Origin: Naegleria gruberi
Lineage: Eukaryota
Length of the DNA stretch: 64,000 nt
NCBI GenBank assembly: GCA_000004985.1
Contig: GG738853.1
Strand: one strand, 5' to 3'
Below, in pieces: positions 15,588 to 41,245 of this stretch. The translations under genes were made by a program, and so were the position numbers. Position 1 is the stretch's first letter. Every line of letters begins with the position of its first letter. The notes below the pieces were generated by a model. The model was not told the origin of the DNA and made no database searches. It was given only the letters and a program-made list of their open reading frames with translations.

Positions 15588-16587
15588 TAAAAAAAAATAA
15601 GGCAATTTTAAATTTAAATTTTCTTGATGATTAATTTTTATGATTTGGTTTTTGCTCAAGCCTTTGGAAGTTTATTTATTAACTTGGGATTGATGATAAT
15701 TCAAGAGAGATGAATTAAATGGTTGAGGTTTTGAATATAATAAGGCTTTTTCTCAAACCTATTGAAAACTTCACTGTAGATTGGAATTAAAAATCGGAAT
15801 CAAGCTTGCAACTCTATCTCTACGAAATCGTACATATGATCAGCGAACGCAAATTGAAAATGGTGTAGTAGTAGCAGCACGATATTCACAAATTTCTATT
15901 CTGAATCAAATTGGCCCTCCTTGTTCAATTTAGTAGACACCAACACCATACGAAAGTGCTCACAAAAAGAACGGCCTTTTTAATACTTTATAACTGCGTC
16001 TTTGTTACAACAGAAAACCAAGCCATAATTAACAATACAATGTGCCATCTACAACTTTCATGTATTGTCTTTTTGAAAGCAAAGGAGATAGAAAATCATT
16101 CCTGAAAGTATGTTTTGGGATTTTTCAATTTCCAAACTCGAAACACTTTCTCTCATGGAAATCACTCATAATTGATGCTGGTGAATCACCTACTCTTGCC
16201 GGCAGTAAAACAACATCAATTTTAATTGAGGAGATACGGTTACCTAAACAACTCATTCATACAAATTTTCAGCTCCCCTCACTAATATAATTGTAAAGAA
16301 TAACAGTCAACAAATGTCAACATGGTTCAATAATATTAATTAGTGATGATACTCCAGAGTGGCACCTGCGACCTTCACTTGTTGTCAAACTAAATATCGA
16401 CCAAGTGGTATTTATGGTTGGGTAGAGAACAATTTCAATCAAACAAAACAGCATCAAAAATCAAAAAAAAACAATCAGTCCGAAGAACAGTCTCTGATTC
16501 TCATTTTACGGCGTCACTTGTCTTTGTAGCGTATTATTGCACCTTTTAAAACTTGTGGCATCAAAATAACGCAAAAAAAACATCAAG

Positions 16588-18309
16588 ATGCTATCTTTTA
16601 AAGATTTGATCAAGTCCACAACTTCCCATCATGAAGAAGTGAAGGAACAAGAAAGTATTCGAAACCATCACTATAATCAACAAACAATTTTACCATCACA
16701 ATCACATCACCAATCAATAGTTCACCATAATGATAGAATAGAGAACAACAGCACCACTGGTTCACTTTATCAATCCCCGCCACCACCATCACCATTCGAA
16801 AGCTCATCAAATGGCTCCAACAGAAATTTCAATGAAAAGTTCAATCTACCAAGTATTGATACTCTATTGAATTCCAAACCACCAACTTTCTCATCACATT
16901 TGTATAACAACACAGTTTCTAATAACAATTTGGCAACTACCACTTCCACAACTAGATCACCACATCATCATCAACACTATTCAATACCCAACAATAACGG
17001 CACTATCCAACAACAGCAACACTATCAAACAACTGATATCCAAATGCAACGCTCTTATTCATCTTCTTCGGTACAACAACTCGGCACTTCAAACAAGTCT
17101 TATAACCATTATCCACACTCTTCGAATTCTTACAGTGATGCATCTCCTCCTACAAGCAGCAACTTTCTACAACATACCCAATATAATAGTAGCGTAACCC
17201 CAACGATATCTGCCACCACTGAGGGTTACTATCATTCTTCAAAGGGTTTTCCAAATTCATCTAATAATGCCGGTAGAAATTCTGAATTTGGGCAGGGTGT
17301 GTGTCCATCACATTCGAATAATGGTCATAATTATACTGGTTGGCAAAGCACTTCCAAAGAAGTTTCTCCTCCTCCTAGAGTAGTTACATCCTTAACAAAC
17401 ACAGCTTCCTATCCTAATCATCCTCATTACAATACTAATAGAGAAGCAAGACTAAATAGTAGTTTACCCTCACAACAATCCATGTACACTACGGCTACTA
17501 CAGCAACTAGTGAACCAACCCAGCAACACAATACAGCAACACCTTACCACCACTCAACTATTAGAGATTCCATTCCACAATCAAACCAACATGCTGACCA
17601 CCAACAGAAACCAAGATTTGAACATAATCTTTCATTAATACCTTCTTCCTCGCCACATCAATCATTAAGAGGATCATCCACCATACTTTCAACACTCAAT
17701 ACTACAGCTCCCAACAGTACTCAAGCAAATGCTTCCCAACAACAATCATCCCCCATGATGAATGGAAACATGGATGATGAAGAAGGTTTTGATGAAGCTG
17801 GTGGTTCTGGAACCTATCGTTTCAGAAAGGGATGGACAAAGGATGAACACATTCGTTTCCTCATAGGTGTACATCTCTTTGGTCGAGGCAATTGGAAGAA
17901 TATTTCAAAAGTCATTGCAGGTAAATCTCCAAAACAAGTTCAATCACATGCTCAAAAGTATTTCCTCAGACAGGAACAAACTTCCAAGACTAAACGTTCT
18001 ATTCACGATTTCAATCTTGAAGATTTGATAGAATTGTTAAAAGACGCCACTTATAGAAATACCATTCGAGAAGATACCACACAGAAGGGAAGAGATTTGG
18101 AAGATTTAGTCAACCGATTTGAATCTTCTTATTACAAAGACCAGACAAAGAATAATAGTAGTACCAGTAGCTCAGGAGGTGCTTCTGGATCACCATCATC
18201 ACCACATTCACCTGTAACAAATAGTCAATTGGGACGTGTTGATAACTCAACTGGTAAACAACTTGTACCAAATTCCAGAATCAACAAACCAAAAAACAAA
18301 CCTTATTAA
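16588..18309 (+). CDS. Myb/SANT domain protein of the SHAQKYF class, with Q/N/S-rich N-terminal low complexity. Putative transcription factor.
   Basis: ATG at 16588. The Myb repeat is WTKDEHIRFLIGVHLFGRGNWKNISKVIAGKSPKQVQSHAQKYF. The N-terminus MLSFKDLIKS echoes the KDIL motif of the two upstream genes. Confidence 0.7.
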   Translation: MLSFKDLIKSTTSHHEEVKEQESIRNHHYNQQTILPSQSHHQSIVHHNDRIENNSTTGSLYQSPPPPSPFESSSNGSNRNFNEKFNLPSIDTLLNSKPPTFSSHLYNNTVSNNNLATTTSTTRSPHHHQHYSIPNNNGTIQQQQHYQTTDIQMQRSYSSSSVQQLGTSNKSYNHYPHSSNSYSDASPPTSSNFLQHTQYNSSVTPTISATTEGYYHSSKGFPNSSNNAGRNSEFGQGVCPSHSNNGHNYTGWQSTSKEVSPPPRVVTSLTNTASYPNHPHYNTNREARLNSSLPSQQSMYTTATTATSEPTQQHNTATPYHHSTIRDSIPQSNQHADHQQKPRFEHNLSLIPSSSPHQSLRGSSTILSTLNTTAPNSTQANASQQQSSPMMNGNMDDEEGFDEAGGSGTYRFRKGWTKDEHIRFLIGVHLFGRGNWKNISKVIAGKSPKQVQSHAQKYFLRQEQTSKTKRSIHDFNLEDLIELLKDATYRNTIREDTTQKGRDLEDLVNRFESSYYKDQTKNNSSTSSSGGASGSPSSPHSPVTNSQLGRVDNSTGKQLVPNSRINKPKNKPY

Positions 18310-25971: not shown

Positions 25972-28900
25972 CTAATTCTTTGTTGGTGTGCTCTCAGTAG
26001 GGTTACTTTCAGAATTGGTTGCGCTCTTATTGGATGGATTGTGGTTGACTGCCTTGAGCTGATTCTCAATGAATTGAGTGTGTTTGATAGTGACCTTTCT
26101 CGATTTGCTATCTCCAATAATACTCTTCAGTAAGCTACTCTTCTTTTCGCTGACTTGTGGATTCTTATTTGCTTCAGCATTGGCTTTAACTTTCATCAAT
26201 TGCTCCATCAGCTCACTATTCACTTGACCTGGAGCAAGAGGTGAATTATTGTTCTTCTCAGTGCCATTGTTGCTTGTGGAAGATCCACCGCTGGTCGAAG
26301 TTGATGAAGTTGGTGCCTTGAAAGATAATTCTTCACCATATTCACATCCAAATACATGTTTGAAAGCTTCTTTTTCCTCGTGAAGTAACTTGAGAGCAGT
26401 TTTATCCTTTTGTTGCAAATCTTGCCACAATGTTGTAATCTTGTCACGGACTTGAACCTTTTCTTCCTTAATTACGTCAAGACGTTTTTCTTTATCTTGC
26501 TTTTCCTGTTCGAGGTCCGCAATTTCACGTTGGAGAGCAGCCAACAATTCCTTCTTTTGTTGAATCTCATTGCTCACCTGAACAGTTCTTACTTGCAAAA
26601 GCATTTGTTCCTGTTGGATTTGCTGATGGAACTTGAGATTTTCTTTAGCTTGGGTATGCACTGCAGCTCTTTCCTTTCCCAATTTGTACATTTCTGAAGA
26701 ATTTTGAAGACTAAGTCCTCTGTTGGCGTATATTTTAACATTGCAAATGTCAGAAATACAATTACCAAGTGATTCTTTCCATTCATCTCTGTCTCCAGTG
26801 GTACTTGTTGTGAGAATGTATTCATATTGAGAACCTTTAGTAATGACACGAATTGGAATGTCACACTCATCAATAACATCATAAAATCCTCTTTTTGGTG
26901 GAGGCACAGGTAAATTCCTTCCTCCACTGGTTGTGATGTTTAGATTGTTGCTATTGTTCCCAAAGAAGGTATCAGTATCAATAAAGTGGAAGAAAATAAA
27001 GTGTAAATTCTTTCCGACAGTTAATGTTAGTTGATGATATTTAGATTTGGTTGAATCTGAATTGGTTGGGGTATTTGATTGTTCCTTCTTCTTTCCAAAC
27101 ATGGTTGCCTTTCGAGTAAAGGATTGGAAAAGTGATGAAGAACCTTCATCAGATTCATTCTTTTCCTCAAGTAATACCAACATGTCAGTAAATTGATAAA
27201 TTGTAAATCTTCCCTCATTGTATTGTGGTTTCAGATTCTTTGAACCAGCCATCTGAGCCAATACATTAGAGAATGTATCACCTTGTTTTCCAGGAACAGG
27301 AGGTGGTAAAACTCTCTTACCTGTACTCGATACTGTAGCTGCAGTAGAAGTTGTTTTTGTTGGAACAGATGGTAAACTTCTTGGAGTCACGGATCCTGAG
27401 TTTTTGGAGTCATTACTTGGTGGTGTTGGCAGTGCTACGGAATTTCTTTGTGACTTCACTTGTCTATACTTGACATGGAAGGAGGCCTTTCGCAGGAACT
27501 TTCTGTTTGGTTGGACAAAACCAGGATAAATTGGTTCGATCATTCCATAAATTTCGTACATGTATCTCACATTATCAAAGTTTCTCTTTTGTTCATTAAT
27601 GTAGGAGGCAATCTTTTCAATTTCATTCACAACTTTTTGTAAGTTTTCAAATTCGGTATGTTCTTCAGGAGTATTAGACAAAATTTCAGAGAGCAACATT
27701 TTGTATCTTGGAATTCTTTGAATTGGTAAAATGAGGAAACTACAGAAATCTGATTTGATTCCCTTTTGCATTTGATAGCACTCTGTTAAAAATTCCTTAA
27801 ATTTCTTATTGGATTTTTTCATCTTGTCAAACATTTCAGTTGCTCTATCGTGGTTATTAATATAGGTTGTGTAAACTTTCAAAAATGGAACAAGATGACC
27901 GAATGGTTTACCGATAGAATCATAAATTCTGTATGATGAAGGTTGATTCTTCTTTTTAAGATTTGGGTCATCTTTTCTCTTGATGACAAACCCAACAGTT
28001 CTTGGACTAGTTAATTCACCAGAACCATTTGGAGTGGATGTTGAGTTGTTTGAAACTTGAGAGGATATGCTGGAGGTTGGAGATGGGAGAGATTCTTCTT
28101 CCTTGATTTCAATTTTGACTTCAGGATTTGCCTTTTCCAAATCATTCAATAATGTTTGATTAATGTTTGAAATTTGGTTAATGTTGGCAAACAGGACTTG
28201 AATCTCTGATTGACCTTTAAAAACACCTTTTCCGTGGTCTCTATTTTCAATTAGTGGTTGATAGTACAAATTAAGGAAGGACTTGAGATTTTGAACGTAG
28301 GTCTTTTCTGTCTCGATGGTCTCCTTAATCAACTCTTGACGTTTTCTACCCTTTTTAAGAGATGGATCTCTACGTATAAAATTGAAGAATCTAACACGTG
28401 TGAATAATTGTGGAATACGTTCTCCCAAAATTGAAATAGCCTTATCCTTGTCAAGTGTCGCCTTTGGTGTGGAAACAGTACTAATCTCGTCATCCTCTAC
28501 TACAGAAGATGATTCAGTAGTTTCGTCATCATCAAAATTAATAATTGATGGTGACTGTAATGTTTCCTCAAGATCTAGCTTTGGAATAATAGGTGAATCT
28601 AAACTATTCGAAACTCCAAAACTTCCATTACTGCTTATACTTTCATGAATAGTTGGAGATGAGCTGCTATTATCTGTACTGTCCATATCAGAAGTAGATC
28701 TCTTTCTAAAATGACTATCCGAAACTGAACCTAAAGCTGTCAAATTACTCAAACTAAATTTTGTTTCAAAATTCTCCAAACTATCAGCACTTGTTATTCT
28801 TGAATGAAGATTATTTGGGCTGTCAATCGATAGAATGACCTTTTCTTCATTACCACTTTCTGATTCAGCAAGAACATTCGAATCCAAATTACTTTCTTGG

Positions 28901-29103
28901 ATTTCATCATGATCAATATTATCTGTTGATGTGGATGATGGTGGTGAAGTATCATTATTAGCCTCTATTGTTGGTGGTGATGTTACACTGTTACCTCCTT
29001 TCCCATACATCAAGGAAGACAATTTTGGAGGAGGTTTAGGTGGTTGATTACTATACACCCTTGATGGTTTCATTGGTGGAGGTGTAGGAGGAAGATTAGA
29101 CAT
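25972..29103 (-). CDS. RhoGEF (DH domain) protein with PH-like region and C-terminal coiled coil (1043 aa).
   Basis: DH core QELIKETIETEKTYVQNLKSFLNLYYQPL...ILPIQRIPRYKMLLSEIL. Downstream heptad-rich segment (QQIQQEQMLLQ...LEQEKQDKEKRLD). The N-terminus is Pro-rich. Confidence 0.75.
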   Translation of the reverse strand: MSNLPPTPPPMKPSRVYSNQPPKPPPKLSSLMYGKGGNSVTSPPTIEANNDTSPPSSTSTDNIDHDEIQESNLDSNVLAESESGNEEKVILSIDSPNNLHSRITSADSLENFETKFSLSNLTALGSVSDSHFRKRSTSDMDSTDNSSSSPTIHESISSNGSFGVSNSLDSPIIPKLDLEETLQSPSIINFDDDETTESSSVVEDDEISTVSTPKATLDKDKAISILGERIPQLFTRVRFFNFIRRDPSLKKGRKRQELIKETIETEKTYVQNLKSFLNLYYQPLIENRDHGKGVFKGQSEIQVLFANINQISNINQTLLNDLEKANPEVKIEIKEEESLPSPTSSISSQVSNNSTSTPNGSGELTSPRTVGFVIKRKDDPNLKKKNQPSSYRIYDSIGKPFGHLVPFLKVYTTYINNHDRATEMFDKMKKSNKKFKEFLTECYQMQKGIKSDFCSFLILPIQRIPRYKMLLSEILSNTPEEHTEFENLQKVVNEIEKIASYINEQKRNFDNVRYMYEIYGMIEPIYPGFVQPNRKFLRKASFHVKYRQVKSQRNSVALPTPPSNDSKNSGSVTPRSLPSVPTKTTSTAATVSSTGKRVLPPPVPGKQGDTFSNVLAQMAGSKNLKPQYNEGRFTIYQFTDMLVLLEEKNESDEGSSSLFQSFTRKATMFGKKKEQSNTPTNSDSTKSKYHQLTLTVGKNLHFIFFHFIDTDTFFGNNSNNLNITTSGGRNLPVPPPKRGFYDVIDECDIPIRVITKGSQYEYILTTSTTGDRDEWKESLGNCISDICNVKIYANRGLSLQNSSEMYKLGKERAAVHTQAKENLKFHQQIQQEQMLLQVRTVQVSNEIQQKKELLAALQREIADLEQEKQDKEKRLDVIKEEKVQVRDKITTLWQDLQQKDKTALKLLHEEKEAFKHVFGCEYGEELSFKAPTSSTSTSGGSSTSNNGTEKNNNSPLAPGQVNSELMEQLMKVKANAEANKNPQVSEKKSSLLKSIIGDSKSRKVTIKHTQFIENQLKAVNHNPSNKSATNSESNPTESTPTKN

Positions 29104-36393: not shown

Positions 36394-36397
36394 GGTG

Positions 36398-36468
36398 TAG
36401 GAAGACAGGGAATCGAACCCTGATCTTAGGAACCACAATCCCATGTTCTACCACTGAACTATCTCCCT
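36398..36468 (-). tRNA. tRNA-His (anticodon GUG).
   Basis: Folded by hand on the minus strand. Acceptor AGGGAGA/TCTTCCT (one G-U pair). D-arm GTTC-AGTGGTA-GAAC. Anticodon stem TGGGA/TCCTA with loop TTGTGGT. T-arm CAGGG-TTCGATT-CCCTG. Discriminator A. No encoded CCA and no intron. Confidence 0.8.
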
Positions 36469-36725
36469 TCTTGGAAGAATAACACAAGTAGCACCTTATG
36501 TCATTTATTCATATAACATGTGAATTAACATTGTCAAGACCGAAACTCTCAAATCACCTTGTATTGGCAACCAAACAAATGACATCCATTTTGTCATCTT
36601 TGTTCACTTTTTCAAAATCAATCTTGAAATGTATTTTTAATTTTCAAGCCAAAATTTGCATTTTTCACGGAAAAGATTACTGCTTTCCATACACTCACAA
36701 GTATTTTGTAATCACACATAAAAAA

Positions 36726-38089
36726 ATGAGTACAACAACAGAACAAGTTTCCGTCCCACAACAACAACAAGAAAACAACAACACCACTTCCCCTCAACAA
36801 GAAGGTGGTGCCGGATTCAAGAGAAGAAACAACGACAACAATAACCGTGGACGTGTTAGAGGAAGAGGTAGAGGAACTAGAAATAATCAAGGAACCAGAC
36901 AACCTCAACAACAACAACAAGGTGAACAACAACAAGCCAAGGTACAAGATCAACAAGCTACTCCATCTAATACAACAACGACTACCGAAGGTGCTGCTCA
37001 ACAAAAACCAAAGAGACAAAGAAAGCCAAGACAACCAAAGCCTCAAGGTGAACAACAAGAAGGTACTACTACCACTCCTACTACAACTTCTCCATCTACT
37101 ACTCCACAACAAGAAGGAGCCTCCACTGAAAAGAAGCCAAAAAGACAAAGAAAACCAAGACAACCTAAGCAAAATGTTGAAGGAACTCCTGAACAACAAA
37201 CAACAACTAGTACTCCAGCCTCTACTACTACTTCTGCCACCACAACAAATGCAACAACTACTCCAGTAGTAGAAGGTTCTGGTAAGCCAAAGAGACAATT
37301 TAAACCAAGAGTTCCAAGAGAACCAAAACAACAACAACCAAAGGAAGCTACTACTACTTCATCTGAAGCTACTACTACAACTCCAGTTGTTGCTTCCACC
37401 GAAGAAGGTGCCAAGCCAAAGAAGCAAAAGAAACCAAGAAAGCCAAGACAACCTAAGGAACAAAATGGAGAAAAGCCAGCCACTACTACTCCAGCTACTA
37501 CTACCACCACTTCAACTGAACAACCATCAACAACCACTCCTCAAGAAAAGAAGGAAAGAGCTCCAAGAAAACCAAGACAGCCAAGACAACCAAGACAACC
37601 AAATGTTGCTTCTTCCGAAGAACAAAAGGATGATGGAAAACTCAGAATTCCAACTTGTAAGTATTGTGTGAAATTTTCACATTTAACATTTTTCTAGTCT
37701 GTAAGGTCAAGGATGTCGAACCAGGTCAATCATTCTATCCTGGACAAGGTGGATTTAATATTGTTTGTAAGATTGTTAGTATAGAAATTGTTTCTCAAAC
37801 CAAGGGACATGCTGTTGCTGAAGTAACAGTTGGTGATGAAACTGGTTGTGTTGTTTTGACTACTCGTACTGAACAATTAGGAGAAGCTAAGGTCGGAAGC
37901 TCAATTATTGTTCGTAATTCCAAGATTAGTTTGTTCAAGAAGAAGTTGCGTTTGAAGATTGATATGTGGGGTAAGATTCAAAGTTTCGAAGAAGGAAAGA
38001 AGGCCATCAGTGTTCCATTGTCTGATGACTTTACTGTCAAGACTGACAAGAATTTGTCAAAGGATGCTACTTATGAACCTCAAATGTAA
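36726..38089 (+). CDS. OB-fold nucleic-acid-binding protein (SOSS-B/NABP/SSB1-like) with long N-terminal basic repeat region, 2 exons: join(36726..37656, 37698..38089).
   Basis: The C-terminal exon encodes an OB fold (VEPGQSFYPGQGGFNIVCKIVSIE...VGDETGCVVLTTRTEQL...GSSIIVRNSKISLFKKKLRLKI). The N-terminal 310 aa carry an RGRVRGRGRG segment and six KPKRQRKPRQPK-type repeats. The intron is GTAAGT...CTAG (41 nt). Confidence 0.6.
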
Positions 38090-38150: not shown

Positions 38151-39284
38151 TTAATTTTTTTGAAATAATTTGGAATTGATAAAATTCAACAATTCAGAGC
38201 TAGGTTCTTGTTCACTGAAATTCACCACCTTGGATTTGGAATTTTCCAAATCGGTATGTACAATTTGGTCAACATTAAGATGACATTTACCCAACTGAGC
38301 TACCAAAATATCCATCATGTGAACATATTGTTCATTCGAAATTTCTTCCAATTTCAATTCATTGGCCAAACTTGTCATTTTAACATGATGAAGTCCACAA
38401 GCTACAATATCACTCCTGAAAGATTGTAAATCTTGACTACTCAAATTCAGATTCATTGCCACGCCATGCATTGATACAAATCTCGATAATTGCAATCCAA
38501 TACTTGCTAACTTTCTCTTCTTTTCTTGTGAATTATTCTCATCAGACTGTTCACAAAGTTTCATACTACTGCTAATATAAATACCCATCTCTGATTCTCC
38601 TCCAACATTCAATTCAATTCTTTCACCCTTTTCAATATTCTCCACTTGGCCCTTCACATCTTTCAGTAAATCATTTGAAAATTGTTGAAGAAATGGAACA
38701 CACAGAGAACGAAGCATAAACTCATCTGAAAACCATTTGATATTCTTTTGGAGAAATGAACTATTCTCCAAATCAAAAAGTGGATACAAAACTAATTGAC
38801 CAGGACAGTGAAAGGTAATTCCACCTCCACGACCAATTTTGTGAATGGCCAATTGTCTTGGATTGTGAAGAATGTGATTTTTGGAAAAGGTTTCGTCAAA
38901 TCTTAACTTTCCAATAGTGAAACAAGATTCTGAATGTTCTGTTGCAATCATGTATTGTCTGTGTTGTAAATTATTGTTTTGATGTTCTTGTTTCAAATTC
39001 CTCAAATAATCGAATAGAAATTGTTGAAATTGTAAACTTTGTTCATATTTCGAATTGGATAAGAGAATTAAACAAAGAGAATCGTATCCTTCCTTTCCTT
39101 TTGTATTTCTAGTTTGTGCAGTATTGAATAATTCATTTTCTTTCTTTTCCATCCACTTTCCAAAACCTTCCGATATTGAATAGTTACATTTCTGATAAAC
39201 ATTCTTCCCAACATTCAATAATCCTCCACATTTATTACCAGAAATCAATCCAATCCTTCTCCTTCCACAACTCAATCGAAGCAT
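38151..39284 (-). CDS. lipB: Lipoyl(octanoyl) transferase (LipB family), probably mitochondrial, with a C-terminal extension.
   Basis: LipB active-site region IGRGGGITFHCPGQLVLYPLFDL. C-terminal KLASIGLQLSRFVSMHGVAMNLN matches the conserved Lys region. The N-terminus is basic, like a presequence. Confidence 0.7.
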   Translation of the reverse strand: MLRLSCGRRRIGLISGNKCGGLLNVGKNVYQKCNYSISEGFGKWMEKKENELFNTAQTRNTKGKEGYDSLCLILLSNSKYEQSLQFQQFLFDYLRNLKQEHQNNNLQHRQYMIATEHSESCFTIGKLRFDETFSKNHILHNPRQLAIHKIGRGGGITFHCPGQLVLYPLFDLENSSFLQKNIKWFSDEFMLRSLCVPFLQQFSNDLLKDVKGQVENIEKGERIELNVGGESEMGIYISSSMKLCEQSDENNSQEKKRKLASIGLQLSRFVSMHGVAMNLNLSSQDLQSFRSDIVACGLHHVKMTSLANELKLEEISNEQYVHMMDILVAQLGKCHLNVDQIVHTDLENSKSKVVNFSEQEPSSELLNFINSKLFQKN

Positions 39285-39787
39285 TTTCTATCAAAATATC
39301 CCACAACTCAACTATTAATAATTCAATTCTCAGTATTTACCCAACAGTTGCTGCTAATCAACCATAATACTGCACACTACACACCAGCAATTGCTGAGAA
39401 TCCAAATAGCCACCACATACCTATTGAATGTTCTCTTTTTGATTGAACAATTGCTTCAATTTATCCAAATTTCCGTATTAAATTAGGTTATTTGTAAACA
39501 ACATCTCCATTTTTTCACCGTAAAACTGAGATTTCTCACCAACAAATCAAAAAACGACAATTTTTTCCCTTACTGTTTCTCTCTTACACTGCGTTTGTGT
39601 TAAAAACAGCACACAAAATGATTGAATTCTCAATATTATCAACAATGCAGAATTTCGTTCCATCACCAAATTGTTGCTTGTTTGCTGAGGTTGATTGTTG
39701 TTATTGTTGAGGATTCGAGTAGTGGATTGTGTGAGGGTTCAATTGTGTGGGCGTGGATAATTAATTAGCAGAGTGGAAAAAAAAGAG
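39285..39787. promoter_or_regulatory. About 500-bp bidirectional intergenic region between divergent lipB and lipA.
   Basis: Head-to-head gene arrangement. No element could be called from sequence alone. Confidence 0.3.
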
Positions 39788-41245
39788 ATGAAGAGGAGCA
39801 GTGGGATAATAGACAAGATTGTGAAGGCAGGTTTGAAGAGGCAATTTTATTCGAAAGGTACTCATTGTGAGCAGTTGATGAAGATGAGTGGACGAAAGGG
39901 AGTGGATTTTCATTTGAGTAATTTGGGAGGAGGAATTTTGCATCAATGTAGTACTGCTGTTGGAGTTTCGAATAATGTTGAAGAAATGAATCAAACTTGG
40001 CAAGAACGAAGAAATATCAAGAGAATGAATCGATTGAAAGAAAAGAAAGTGGAAGAAACTCAACATTCTGAAGCACTTTTACAAGAAAGAGACGAAATGG
40101 TTAAAAAATCATTAGAAATATTACAATCCCGAATGGACGAAATGGAAAACTTTCAGATAATTCGTTCATTTCTTCCAAAATCTATATCAGATGCTGATTT
40201 ACTCACTAAATACTATCCAGCACTCAAAGATTCGGATAATTCTATTCGATATGATGGTAAACTAAAGAATGTAGATACCATTCGTGCAAAACCAAGATGG
40301 TTACTTTCGAATATAATTCCAAAGAATGAAGAATCAAATTCCAATTACAATCGTCTCAGAAACACATTAAGCGGACTCAAACTAAACACTGTCTGTGTAG
40401 AAGCCAAATGTCCAAACATTGGAGAATGTTGGGGAGGAAAATCCCAAACTAAACATCAAGATTCGAATATAAATATTCTAGACGAATCGAACAACCATCA
40501 AATGGCCACAGCAACCATCATGCTAATGGGTGATACTTGCACTCGTGGTTGCAGATTCTGCTCAGTCAAGACAAGCAAATGTCCTCCACCCTTAGATCCT
40601 TCAGAACCTGAAAACACCGCAGATGCCATCCATAAATGGGGTTTAGAATATGTTGTCTTGACATCTGTCGATCGAGATGATTTGACAGATGGAGGAGCTC
40701 AACATTTTTATGAAACTGTTCAAAAGATTAAGGAAAAAAATCCTAAAATTTTGGTGGAATGCTTAACTGGTGATTTTCAAGGAGATTTGGAATGTATTCG
40801 AAAGATGAGTTTATCTGGAATGGATGTTTATGCGCATAATGTTGAAACTGTGGAAGAGTTGACTCCACAAGTGAGAGATTACAGAGCTACCTTTCGTCAA
40901 TCATTGAAAGTTTTGAAACTTGTAAAGGAATTTAATCCGAAACTCATTACAAAAAGTTCAATAATGGTTGGCTTGGGAGAAAGTGATCAACAAATATTCG
41001 AAACCATGTGGGAATTGAAGAATGCAGGTGTAGATTGCATTACCATTGGTCAATACCTTCGTCCAACGAAAATGCACATGAAAGTTTTGGAATATTTCAC
41101 ACCAAAGAGATTCGAATTGTTACAAGAAATTGGAGAGAAAGTTTTTGGATTTAAATATGTGGCAAGTGGACCAATGGTTCGTTCAAGTTATAGAGCTGGA
41201 GAATTGTTTTTGAAGAATCTCATTTTGAAAGAACAAGTTGTTTAA
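39788..41245 (+). CDS. Lipoyl synthase (LipA/LIAS, radical SAM).
   Basis: N-terminal auxiliary-cluster motif [12 protein letters not shown]. Radical-SAM motif CTRGCRFC. Conserved [19 protein letters not shown] and C-terminal SSYRAGE. The track start at 39773 is GTG; first ATG is at 39788. Confidence 0.9.

Follow-up and report, generated by a model that had tools for sequence, protein, structure and literature searches.

A 64,000-nucleotide stretch of the Naegleria gruberi genome (hereafter the window; contig GG738853.1) carries, side by side and in head-to-head orientation, genes for a predicted LipB-type octanoyltransferase and for the lipoyl synthase LipA, and the divergent orientation is found in 5/5 heterolobosean loci. 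Both genes are nuclear, eukaryotic and already present in public annotation. With a probability of roughly 0.6, we consider them to be a lipoylation gene pair which has been kept head-to-head and whose spacer serves as one shared, bidirectional regulatory region. According to this proposal, LipB would move octanoate from acyl carrier protein to lipoyl domains and LipA would then insert two sulfur atoms; the head-to-head order with its short spacer would date back at least to the ancestor shared by Naegleria and Willaertia; the spacer, acting as a single bidirectional regulatory region, would give coordinate production of both enzymes; and selection against splitting it would hold the pair together. 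Judged from the sequence, co-regulation of the two genes is plausible. The original prediction had looked to Dictyostelia and Amoebozoa for relatives of this DNA, a setting that has to be replaced by Heterolobosea (Discoba), as both proteins are 100% identical to N. gruberi records; the G + C content of about 33% and the long, intron-poor open reading frames (ORFs) of the window, 71% of which lies under ORFs of at least 120 aa, also fit Naegleria.

The two ORFs correspond exactly to those originally proposed, divergent across a spacer of about 500 bp (Table 1). The LipA ORF (39773-41245, plus strand) comprises 490 aa when read from a GTG codon, and its first ATG is at 39788, so that the two genes are 488 bp apart from ORF to ORF and 503 bp apart from ATG to ATG. 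The public models are NAEGRDRAFT_55158 for LipB (XP_002680643; 333 aa, start at 39152, annotated as 'predicted protein') and NAEGRDRAFT_31291 for LipA (XP_002680506; 367 aa, start at 40142, with the UniRef name 'Lipoyl synthase, mitochondrial'), which lie on one 695,587-bp N. gruberi scaffold and represent the single public copy of each gene in this species. The LipB ORF is 100% identical to its record over 333 aa, and the LipA ORF is likewise 100% identical; an exact-protein look-up of the 377-aa LipB ORF returned no record, because the public model is shorter. The public starts would set the spacer at 989 bp, and with either the long or the public models the genes have the geometry of a bidirectional-promoter pair, in which head-to-head genes start less than 1 kb apart.

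Both public models are probably truncated at the N-terminus, omitting the stretches 39152-39284 (LipB) and 39788-40141 (LipA). Upstream of the annotated starts, the ISEGFxxW motif of LipB (alignment A2) and the RR..KR.N....HSE..LQERDE block and GxxIL segment of LipA (alignment A1) are kept in the orthologues, and the long ORFs are therefore the better models. The N-terminus of the long LipB ORF (MLRLSCGRRRIGL...) contains six arginine or lysine residues and no aspartate or glutamate among its first 30 residues; basic, acid-poor N-termini resembling mitochondrial presequences are found on both long ORFs and on their orthologues and suggest that the two enzymes are imported into mitochondria, while the annotated starts of both public models open with ME and are acidic. 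On the basis of this conservation and composition, 39284 and 39788 are taken as the start codons and the spacer as 503 bp. Truncated models, together with the label 'predicted protein' for LipB, could mislead inventories of the mitochondrial proteome.

Table 1. Features of the N. gruberi LipB-LipA locus (positions in the window; A1 and A2 are the LipA and LipB alignments).
Feature	Position	Strand	Remarks
LipB-type octanoyltransferase gene (LIPT2/LIP2 equivalent), predicted	38151..39284	-	377 aa including basic N-terminal presequence-like segment
Codon of LipB Cys296, predicted acyl-thioester catalytic cysteine	38397..38399	-	Invariant in A2; aligns with PCG cysteine of M. tuberculosis LipB (PDB 1w66)
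Codon of LipB Lys258, predicted catalytic lysine of Cys/Lys dyad	38511..38513	-	Invariant in A2; aligns with RK(V/L)A(A/S)IG lysine of 1w66 and 2qht
Divergent spacer between start codons	39285..39787	.	503 bp; candidate shared (bidirectional) promoter region
Candidate conserved cis-element TTTGATTGAAC	39438..39448	+	11 bp; core TTGATTGA in all five heterolobosean LipB-LipA spacers
Second, partial motif copy TGATTGAA	39619..39626	+	Within spacer
Lipoyl synthase gene (LipA/LIAS, mitochondrial type)	39788..41245	+	485 aa counted from first ATG
Auxiliary [4Fe-4S] cluster motif CX4CX5C	40394..40429	+	ORF residues C208, C213, C219; invariant columns in A1
Lineage-specific 22-residue hydrophilic insertion	40439..40504	+	ORF residues 223-244, between CX4CX5C and CX3CX2C
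Radical-SAM cluster motif CX3CX2C	40538..40561	+	ORF residues C256, C260, C263; invariant columns in A1

The product of the minus-strand gene is, by prediction from its sequence, a LipB-type octanoyltransferase, as had been proposed for it. Residues 106-321 match Pfam PF21948 (LplA-B_cat) with 54.2 bits against a cutoff of 27, and all five NCBIfam matches are to LipB models, with none to LplA or LipM. Lys258 and Cys296 align with the catalytic Lys and Cys residues in the LipB structures from M. tuberculosis and T. thermophilus; in M. tuberculosis this dyad is Cys176/Lys142. The motif RGG..T.H.PGQ is retained as well, with R152, G153, G154, T157, H159, G162 and Q163 invariant and P161 nearly invariant in A2. 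The best NCBIfam model, TIGR00214, gives 80.3 bits, just short of its curated equivalog cutoff of 83.55; clade-specific insertions break its match into two parts, and divergence accounts for the narrow margin. This shortfall, the insertions, a C-terminal extension of about 60 aa and a long branch are what might be expected if the gene encoded a LIPT1/LplA-type ligase or a degenerate paralogue instead of a working octanoyltransferase, in which case there would be no pathway pair; such an outcome is very improbable in view of the exclusively LipB equivalog matches, the invariant motif and dyad residues that align with the two LipB structures, and a word-indexed search that returned one N. gruberi protein with an LplA/LipB domain.

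The plus-strand gene encodes a true LipA, in agreement with the original prediction, as its product exceeds the curated equivalog cutoff of TIGR00510 (370 against 310.25 bits), contains the Pfam domains Radical_SAM (80 bits) and LIAS_N, and possesses both cysteine motifs of the family as well as the C-terminal RSSY motif (R470-S471-S472-Y473), which is invariant in A1. It is of the mitochondrial (eukaryotic) rather than the bacterial subtype by sequence comparison, aligning with human LIAS (8tsk) at 410 bits and with bacterial structures at 198-215 bits (T. elongatus LipA, 214; M. tuberculosis LipA, 198), and its top matches outside Heterolobosea are animal and fungal mitochondrial LIAS with 55-63% identity.

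The divergent LipA/LipB pair is also encoded in N. lovaniensis (L001; C9374_004786/004787), in N. fowleri (two assemblies, L002 and L003), in Willaertia magna (L004; ABK040_001492/001493) and in an environmental Naegleria-like JGI contig (L005), placed by a neighbour-joining tree of LipB between Willaertia and the three named Naegleria species. The ATG-to-ATG spacers are about 309 bp in N. lovaniensis (measured after correction of the LipA start), 331 bp in N. fowleri, 229 bp in L005 and 140 bp in Willaertia. Unique, unconserved synteny together with a lack of co-expression had been named beforehand as an observation that would speak against a functional cluster; in the Naegleria species, L005 and Willaertia the divergent pair is kept. 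Of the window's ORFs, the N. lovaniensis and N. fowleri loci (about 20 kb) match only those for a RhoGEF, an OB-fold protein, LipB and LipA, and the 21-kb Willaertia locus matches the last two alone. The OB-fold neighbour is kept in N. lovaniensis and N. fowleri, and also in L005, and is not found in Willaertia. If the N. gruberi genome contains about 15,700 genes, as we assume, the chance that any particular gene lies directly beside a particular partner is about 1.3e-4. One adjacency of pathway partners among the many such pairs of a genome is unremarkable alone; it is the conservation across genera that lifts this pair above chance.

A global MAFFT alignment of the five spacers is uninformative, with only short blocks in common. 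Ungapped blocks of at least 12/14 identity total 34, whereas the null distribution has a mean of 8.1 and a maximum of 15, and the spacers of N. lovaniensis and N. fowleri contain collinear footprints. One 8-mer, TTGATTGA, occurs in all five spacers (empirical p of about 0.001-0.002), an 8-mer being shared by all five in 4/3000 trials with random segments of the same loci and in 7/3000 Markov shuffles; its copy in the Willaertia spacer is the only one in that 21-kb locus. If the spacer does co-regulate the genes, the surrounding 11-bp element would be a concrete candidate for a cis-element in Naegleria, a lineage with almost no characterised promoters. A role as a general promoter element was rejected, since the non-ORF sequence of the window is not enriched in the motif, and the idea that it marks mitochondrial genes found no support, since extended copies elsewhere lie ahead of genes for a Myb protein and an ABC transporter. 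Apart from the spacer, TTTGATTGAA occurs once in the window, at 16434-16443 (minus strand), about 150 bp upstream of the Myb-domain gene at 16588-18309. An Rfam scan of the window found no RNA family in the spacer, its sole match being a tRNA-His (GTG anticodon) at 36397-36468 (minus strand). Between 39200 and 40100, the GC skew changes sign within the spacer, from about -0.5 left of about 39600 to about +0.6 right of about 39650, so that the sense strand is G-rich at the 5' end of each gene; this may be a mark of divergent transcription, or reflect codon content only.

The main rival to a shared promoter is that the two genes became neighbours by chance and have been kept together by inertia, their expression not being specifically coordinated. 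Rearrangement breakpoints would seldom hit a spacer of only 140-500 bp, and a break within it would damage either gene regardless of function. Such inertia would suit a genome as compact as the ORF coverage of the window indicates, and the unrelated OB-fold gene, which ends 62 bp from the LipB stop codon, has also been kept across the Naegleria species and L005. Several observations weigh against a shared, selected regulatory region: all conserved loci come from one family-level clade and represent few independent events; the lipA-lipB adjacency is absent from two protist contigs (L006 and L056); only 6/20 motif copies in the window fall in non-ORF sequence, which makes up 29% of it; the only other extended copy in the window precedes the unrelated Myb gene; and the literature and supplements searched yielded no transcription-start or expression data for either gene. 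The restriction to one clade and the lack of motif enrichment also speak for inertia. Inertia alone, on the other hand, does not readily account for Willaertia, in which the OB-fold neighbour and everything else of the window are gone while the LipB-LipA pair remains, nor for a common 8-mer beyond chance, nor for the fact that the products act one after the other in a single pathway, a relation hardly to be expected a priori between random neighbours. Independent promoters are also hard to imagine within the 140 bp of the Willaertia spacer. We therefore regard chance adjacency and inertia as possible but rather unlikely, and favour the shared bidirectional region, from which co-expression of the two genes would be expected and to which their retention may be due. 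A more ambitious version of the shared-region reading, which we put forward only tentatively, is that selection maintains the pair as a two-gene lipoylation module in vahlkampfiid amoebae, with one bidirectional promoter in which the conserved TTTGATTGAAC would bind a factor tuning cofactor assembly to mitochondrial demand (e.g. iron-sulfur supply or shifts between aerobic and anaerobic metabolism), and that it constitutes an independent eukaryotic equivalent of the bacterial lipA-lipB operon. The OGDH E2, a lipoylated client of such a pathway, and E3 are listed in the mitochondrial proteome file of N. gruberi (PMC8134430).

Another origin to be weighed is a bacterial lipA-lipB operon, of which the pair would be a relic that either came with the mitochondrial ancestor or arrived by joint horizontal transfer. 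Adjacent or fused genes are indeed common in prokaryote-like metagenome loci: a metagenome scan with a heterolobosean LipB profile gave 48 loci whose best segments were 22-61% identical (the two top values over 28-47 residues); they all looked prokaryote-like, none heterolobosean, and were used only as a control for orientation. Of the 45 that were scored, 28 had lipA next to or near lipB, and the proteins P0010, P0061 and P0304 are LipB-LipA fusions. In addition, the best matches of LipB outside its clade in the word-indexed search are bacterial, with about 30% identity. Descent from such an operon implies co-directional, co-transcribed genes; the 28 prokaryote-like pairs are all on the same strand (28/28), whereas the heterolobosean pairs are all divergent. 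The LipA of N. gruberi also shares about 60% identity with animal and fungal mitochondrial LIAS and only 36-46% with the LipA of the prokaryote-like loci. As for LipB, an exhaustive profile search (1.84 billion) gave only four representatives below 1e-30, which belong to Naegleria, Willaertia or the JGI contig, followed by a mixed tier of bacteria, Heterolobosea sp. BB2, insects, fungi and protists, in which the LIPT2-type proteins of insects, fungi and protists and that of BB2 score in the bacterial range. The LipB neighbour-joining tree is star-like and gives the vahlkampfiid clade no resolved sister group (best, 59/200 bootstraps). The vahlkampfiid LipB is a long-branch clade with no positive evidence for horizontal transfer, and a bacterial relic is highly improbable. 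Because the LipA is closer to mitochondrial LIAS and the prokaryote-like pairs are same-strand, the N. gruberi pair is analogous to the bacterial linkage and bears no sign of descent from it; the 'echo' of bacterial lipB-lipA linkage in the original prediction holds only as an analogy.

Further relatives of this LipB were sought with little yield. The long-contig candidates P0221, P0226 and P0263 proved to be bacterial, the protist contig candidate P0213 has no LipA neighbour, and a search seeded with the LipB of Heterolobosea sp. BB2 revealed no further heterolobosean among the 120 matches listed, the named ones being LipB of the bacterial type (about 205-265 aa). One bacterial metagenome contig (L059:3214-11140) contains a complete lipoylation neighbourhood, all on one strand, with genes for E1 alpha and beta, E2, the LipB-radical-SAM fusion-like P0221, a second protein with an LplA/LipB domain, and GcvH.

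The LipA insertion located between the two cluster motifs had been described as Asn/Gln-rich; the insertion itself is present, and the description applies only mildly, as N or Q accounts for 7/22 residues. It amounts to 22 residues relative to fungal and animal LIAS and 17 relative to human LIAS. In A1 the same region is longer in N. lovaniensis and N. fowleri (about 40-45 aa by eye), much shorter in Willaertia, and absent from animal and fungal LIAS. The insertion lies inside residues 203-244, which have a predicted local distance difference test (pLDDT) score below 50 in a structure model, and is predicted to be a disordered loop. An unspliced intron was considered and rejected, as the segment is in frame, GT...AG boundaries are not seen in the sequence, and conservation at the protein level is partial. 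The structure model has pLDDT values below 50 for ORF residues 1-95 and above 84 for residues ~101-170 (~40073-40282), a helical segment N-terminal to the auxiliary-cluster motif, part of which (...ILQS) is apparently conserved only among the LipA of Naegleria and Willaertia. In N. lovaniensis, the tblastn match of LipA changes frame at L001:8982-9056, where its two segments are separated by about 73 nt and the public model is gapped; this indicates an intron or a frameshift at a point where N. gruberi and N. fowleri are continuous.

Among the neighbouring genes, the OB-fold gene (Ssb-like; Pfam PF21473) is located at 37664-38089 on the plus strand, tail-to-tail with LipB. Its conserved region has no upstream in-frame ATG, and the start may lie in an upstream exon. 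The RhoGEF gene (25972-29103, minus strand) flanks the pair on the LipB side in N. gruberi, whereas its counterparts in N. lovaniensis (L001:3-2303) and N. fowleri (L002:65-2519) flank it on the side of LipA and with reversed relative orientation, a switch that implies a rearrangement with breakpoints flanking the OB-LipB-LipA trio. The ORF at 36498-37697 (plus strand; 399 aa) is extremely rich in T, Q, P and K, has no Pfam match, and consists of KPKRQ(R/F)KPR(Q/V)P(K/R)-like repeat units between poly-Thr tracts, with a strong AT skew throughout.

LipB and LipA themselves are ordinary housekeeping enzymes, and the interest of the pair lies in its arrangement. If the spacer co-regulates both genes, the pair would show, in a small and clean example, how a eukaryotic cofactor pathway has convergently acquired an operon-like organisation. 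The bacterial lipA-lipB operons and LipB-LipA fusions resemble it in that the same two enzymes are physically linked, which gives stoichiometric or coordinated production. They differ in that their genes, in the loci examined, run in the same direction or are fused and are in no case divergent, whereas in Naegleria each gene needs its own transcript and presequence and the LipA is of the eukaryotic mitochondrial type. The relation is one of analogy, with shared ancestry not demonstrated.

Divergent pairs of co-functional genes in other eukaryotes include GAL1-GAL10, histone H2A-H2B and the mammalian mitochondrial chaperonin genes HSPD1-HSPE1. The Naegleria pair resembles such bidirectional-promoter pairs in that functionally coupled genes stand head-to-head with a spacer below 1 kb and an orientation conserved across species. 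Conserved adjacent pairs of co-functional genes are already documented in eukaryotes, those for ribosome biogenesis, purine metabolism and heat shock in yeast reportedly being more tightly co-regulated and conserved across fungal lineages (PMC3500266); in the Naegleria pair, co-regulation is a prediction. The literature and supplements searched mention neither the particular LipB-LipA pair nor its locus tags, gave no localisation data for either protein, and contained no paper on a pair of this kind for lipoylation or for Heterolobosea. The closest functional counterparts are human LIAS/LIPT2, yeast LIP5/LIP2 and Plasmodium LipA/LipB, orthologous enzymes of the same two-step pathway which are likewise nuclear-encoded and organelle-targeted. 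In human, yeast, Arabidopsis and P. falciparum, the lipA and lipB orthologues presumably reside on different chromosomes.

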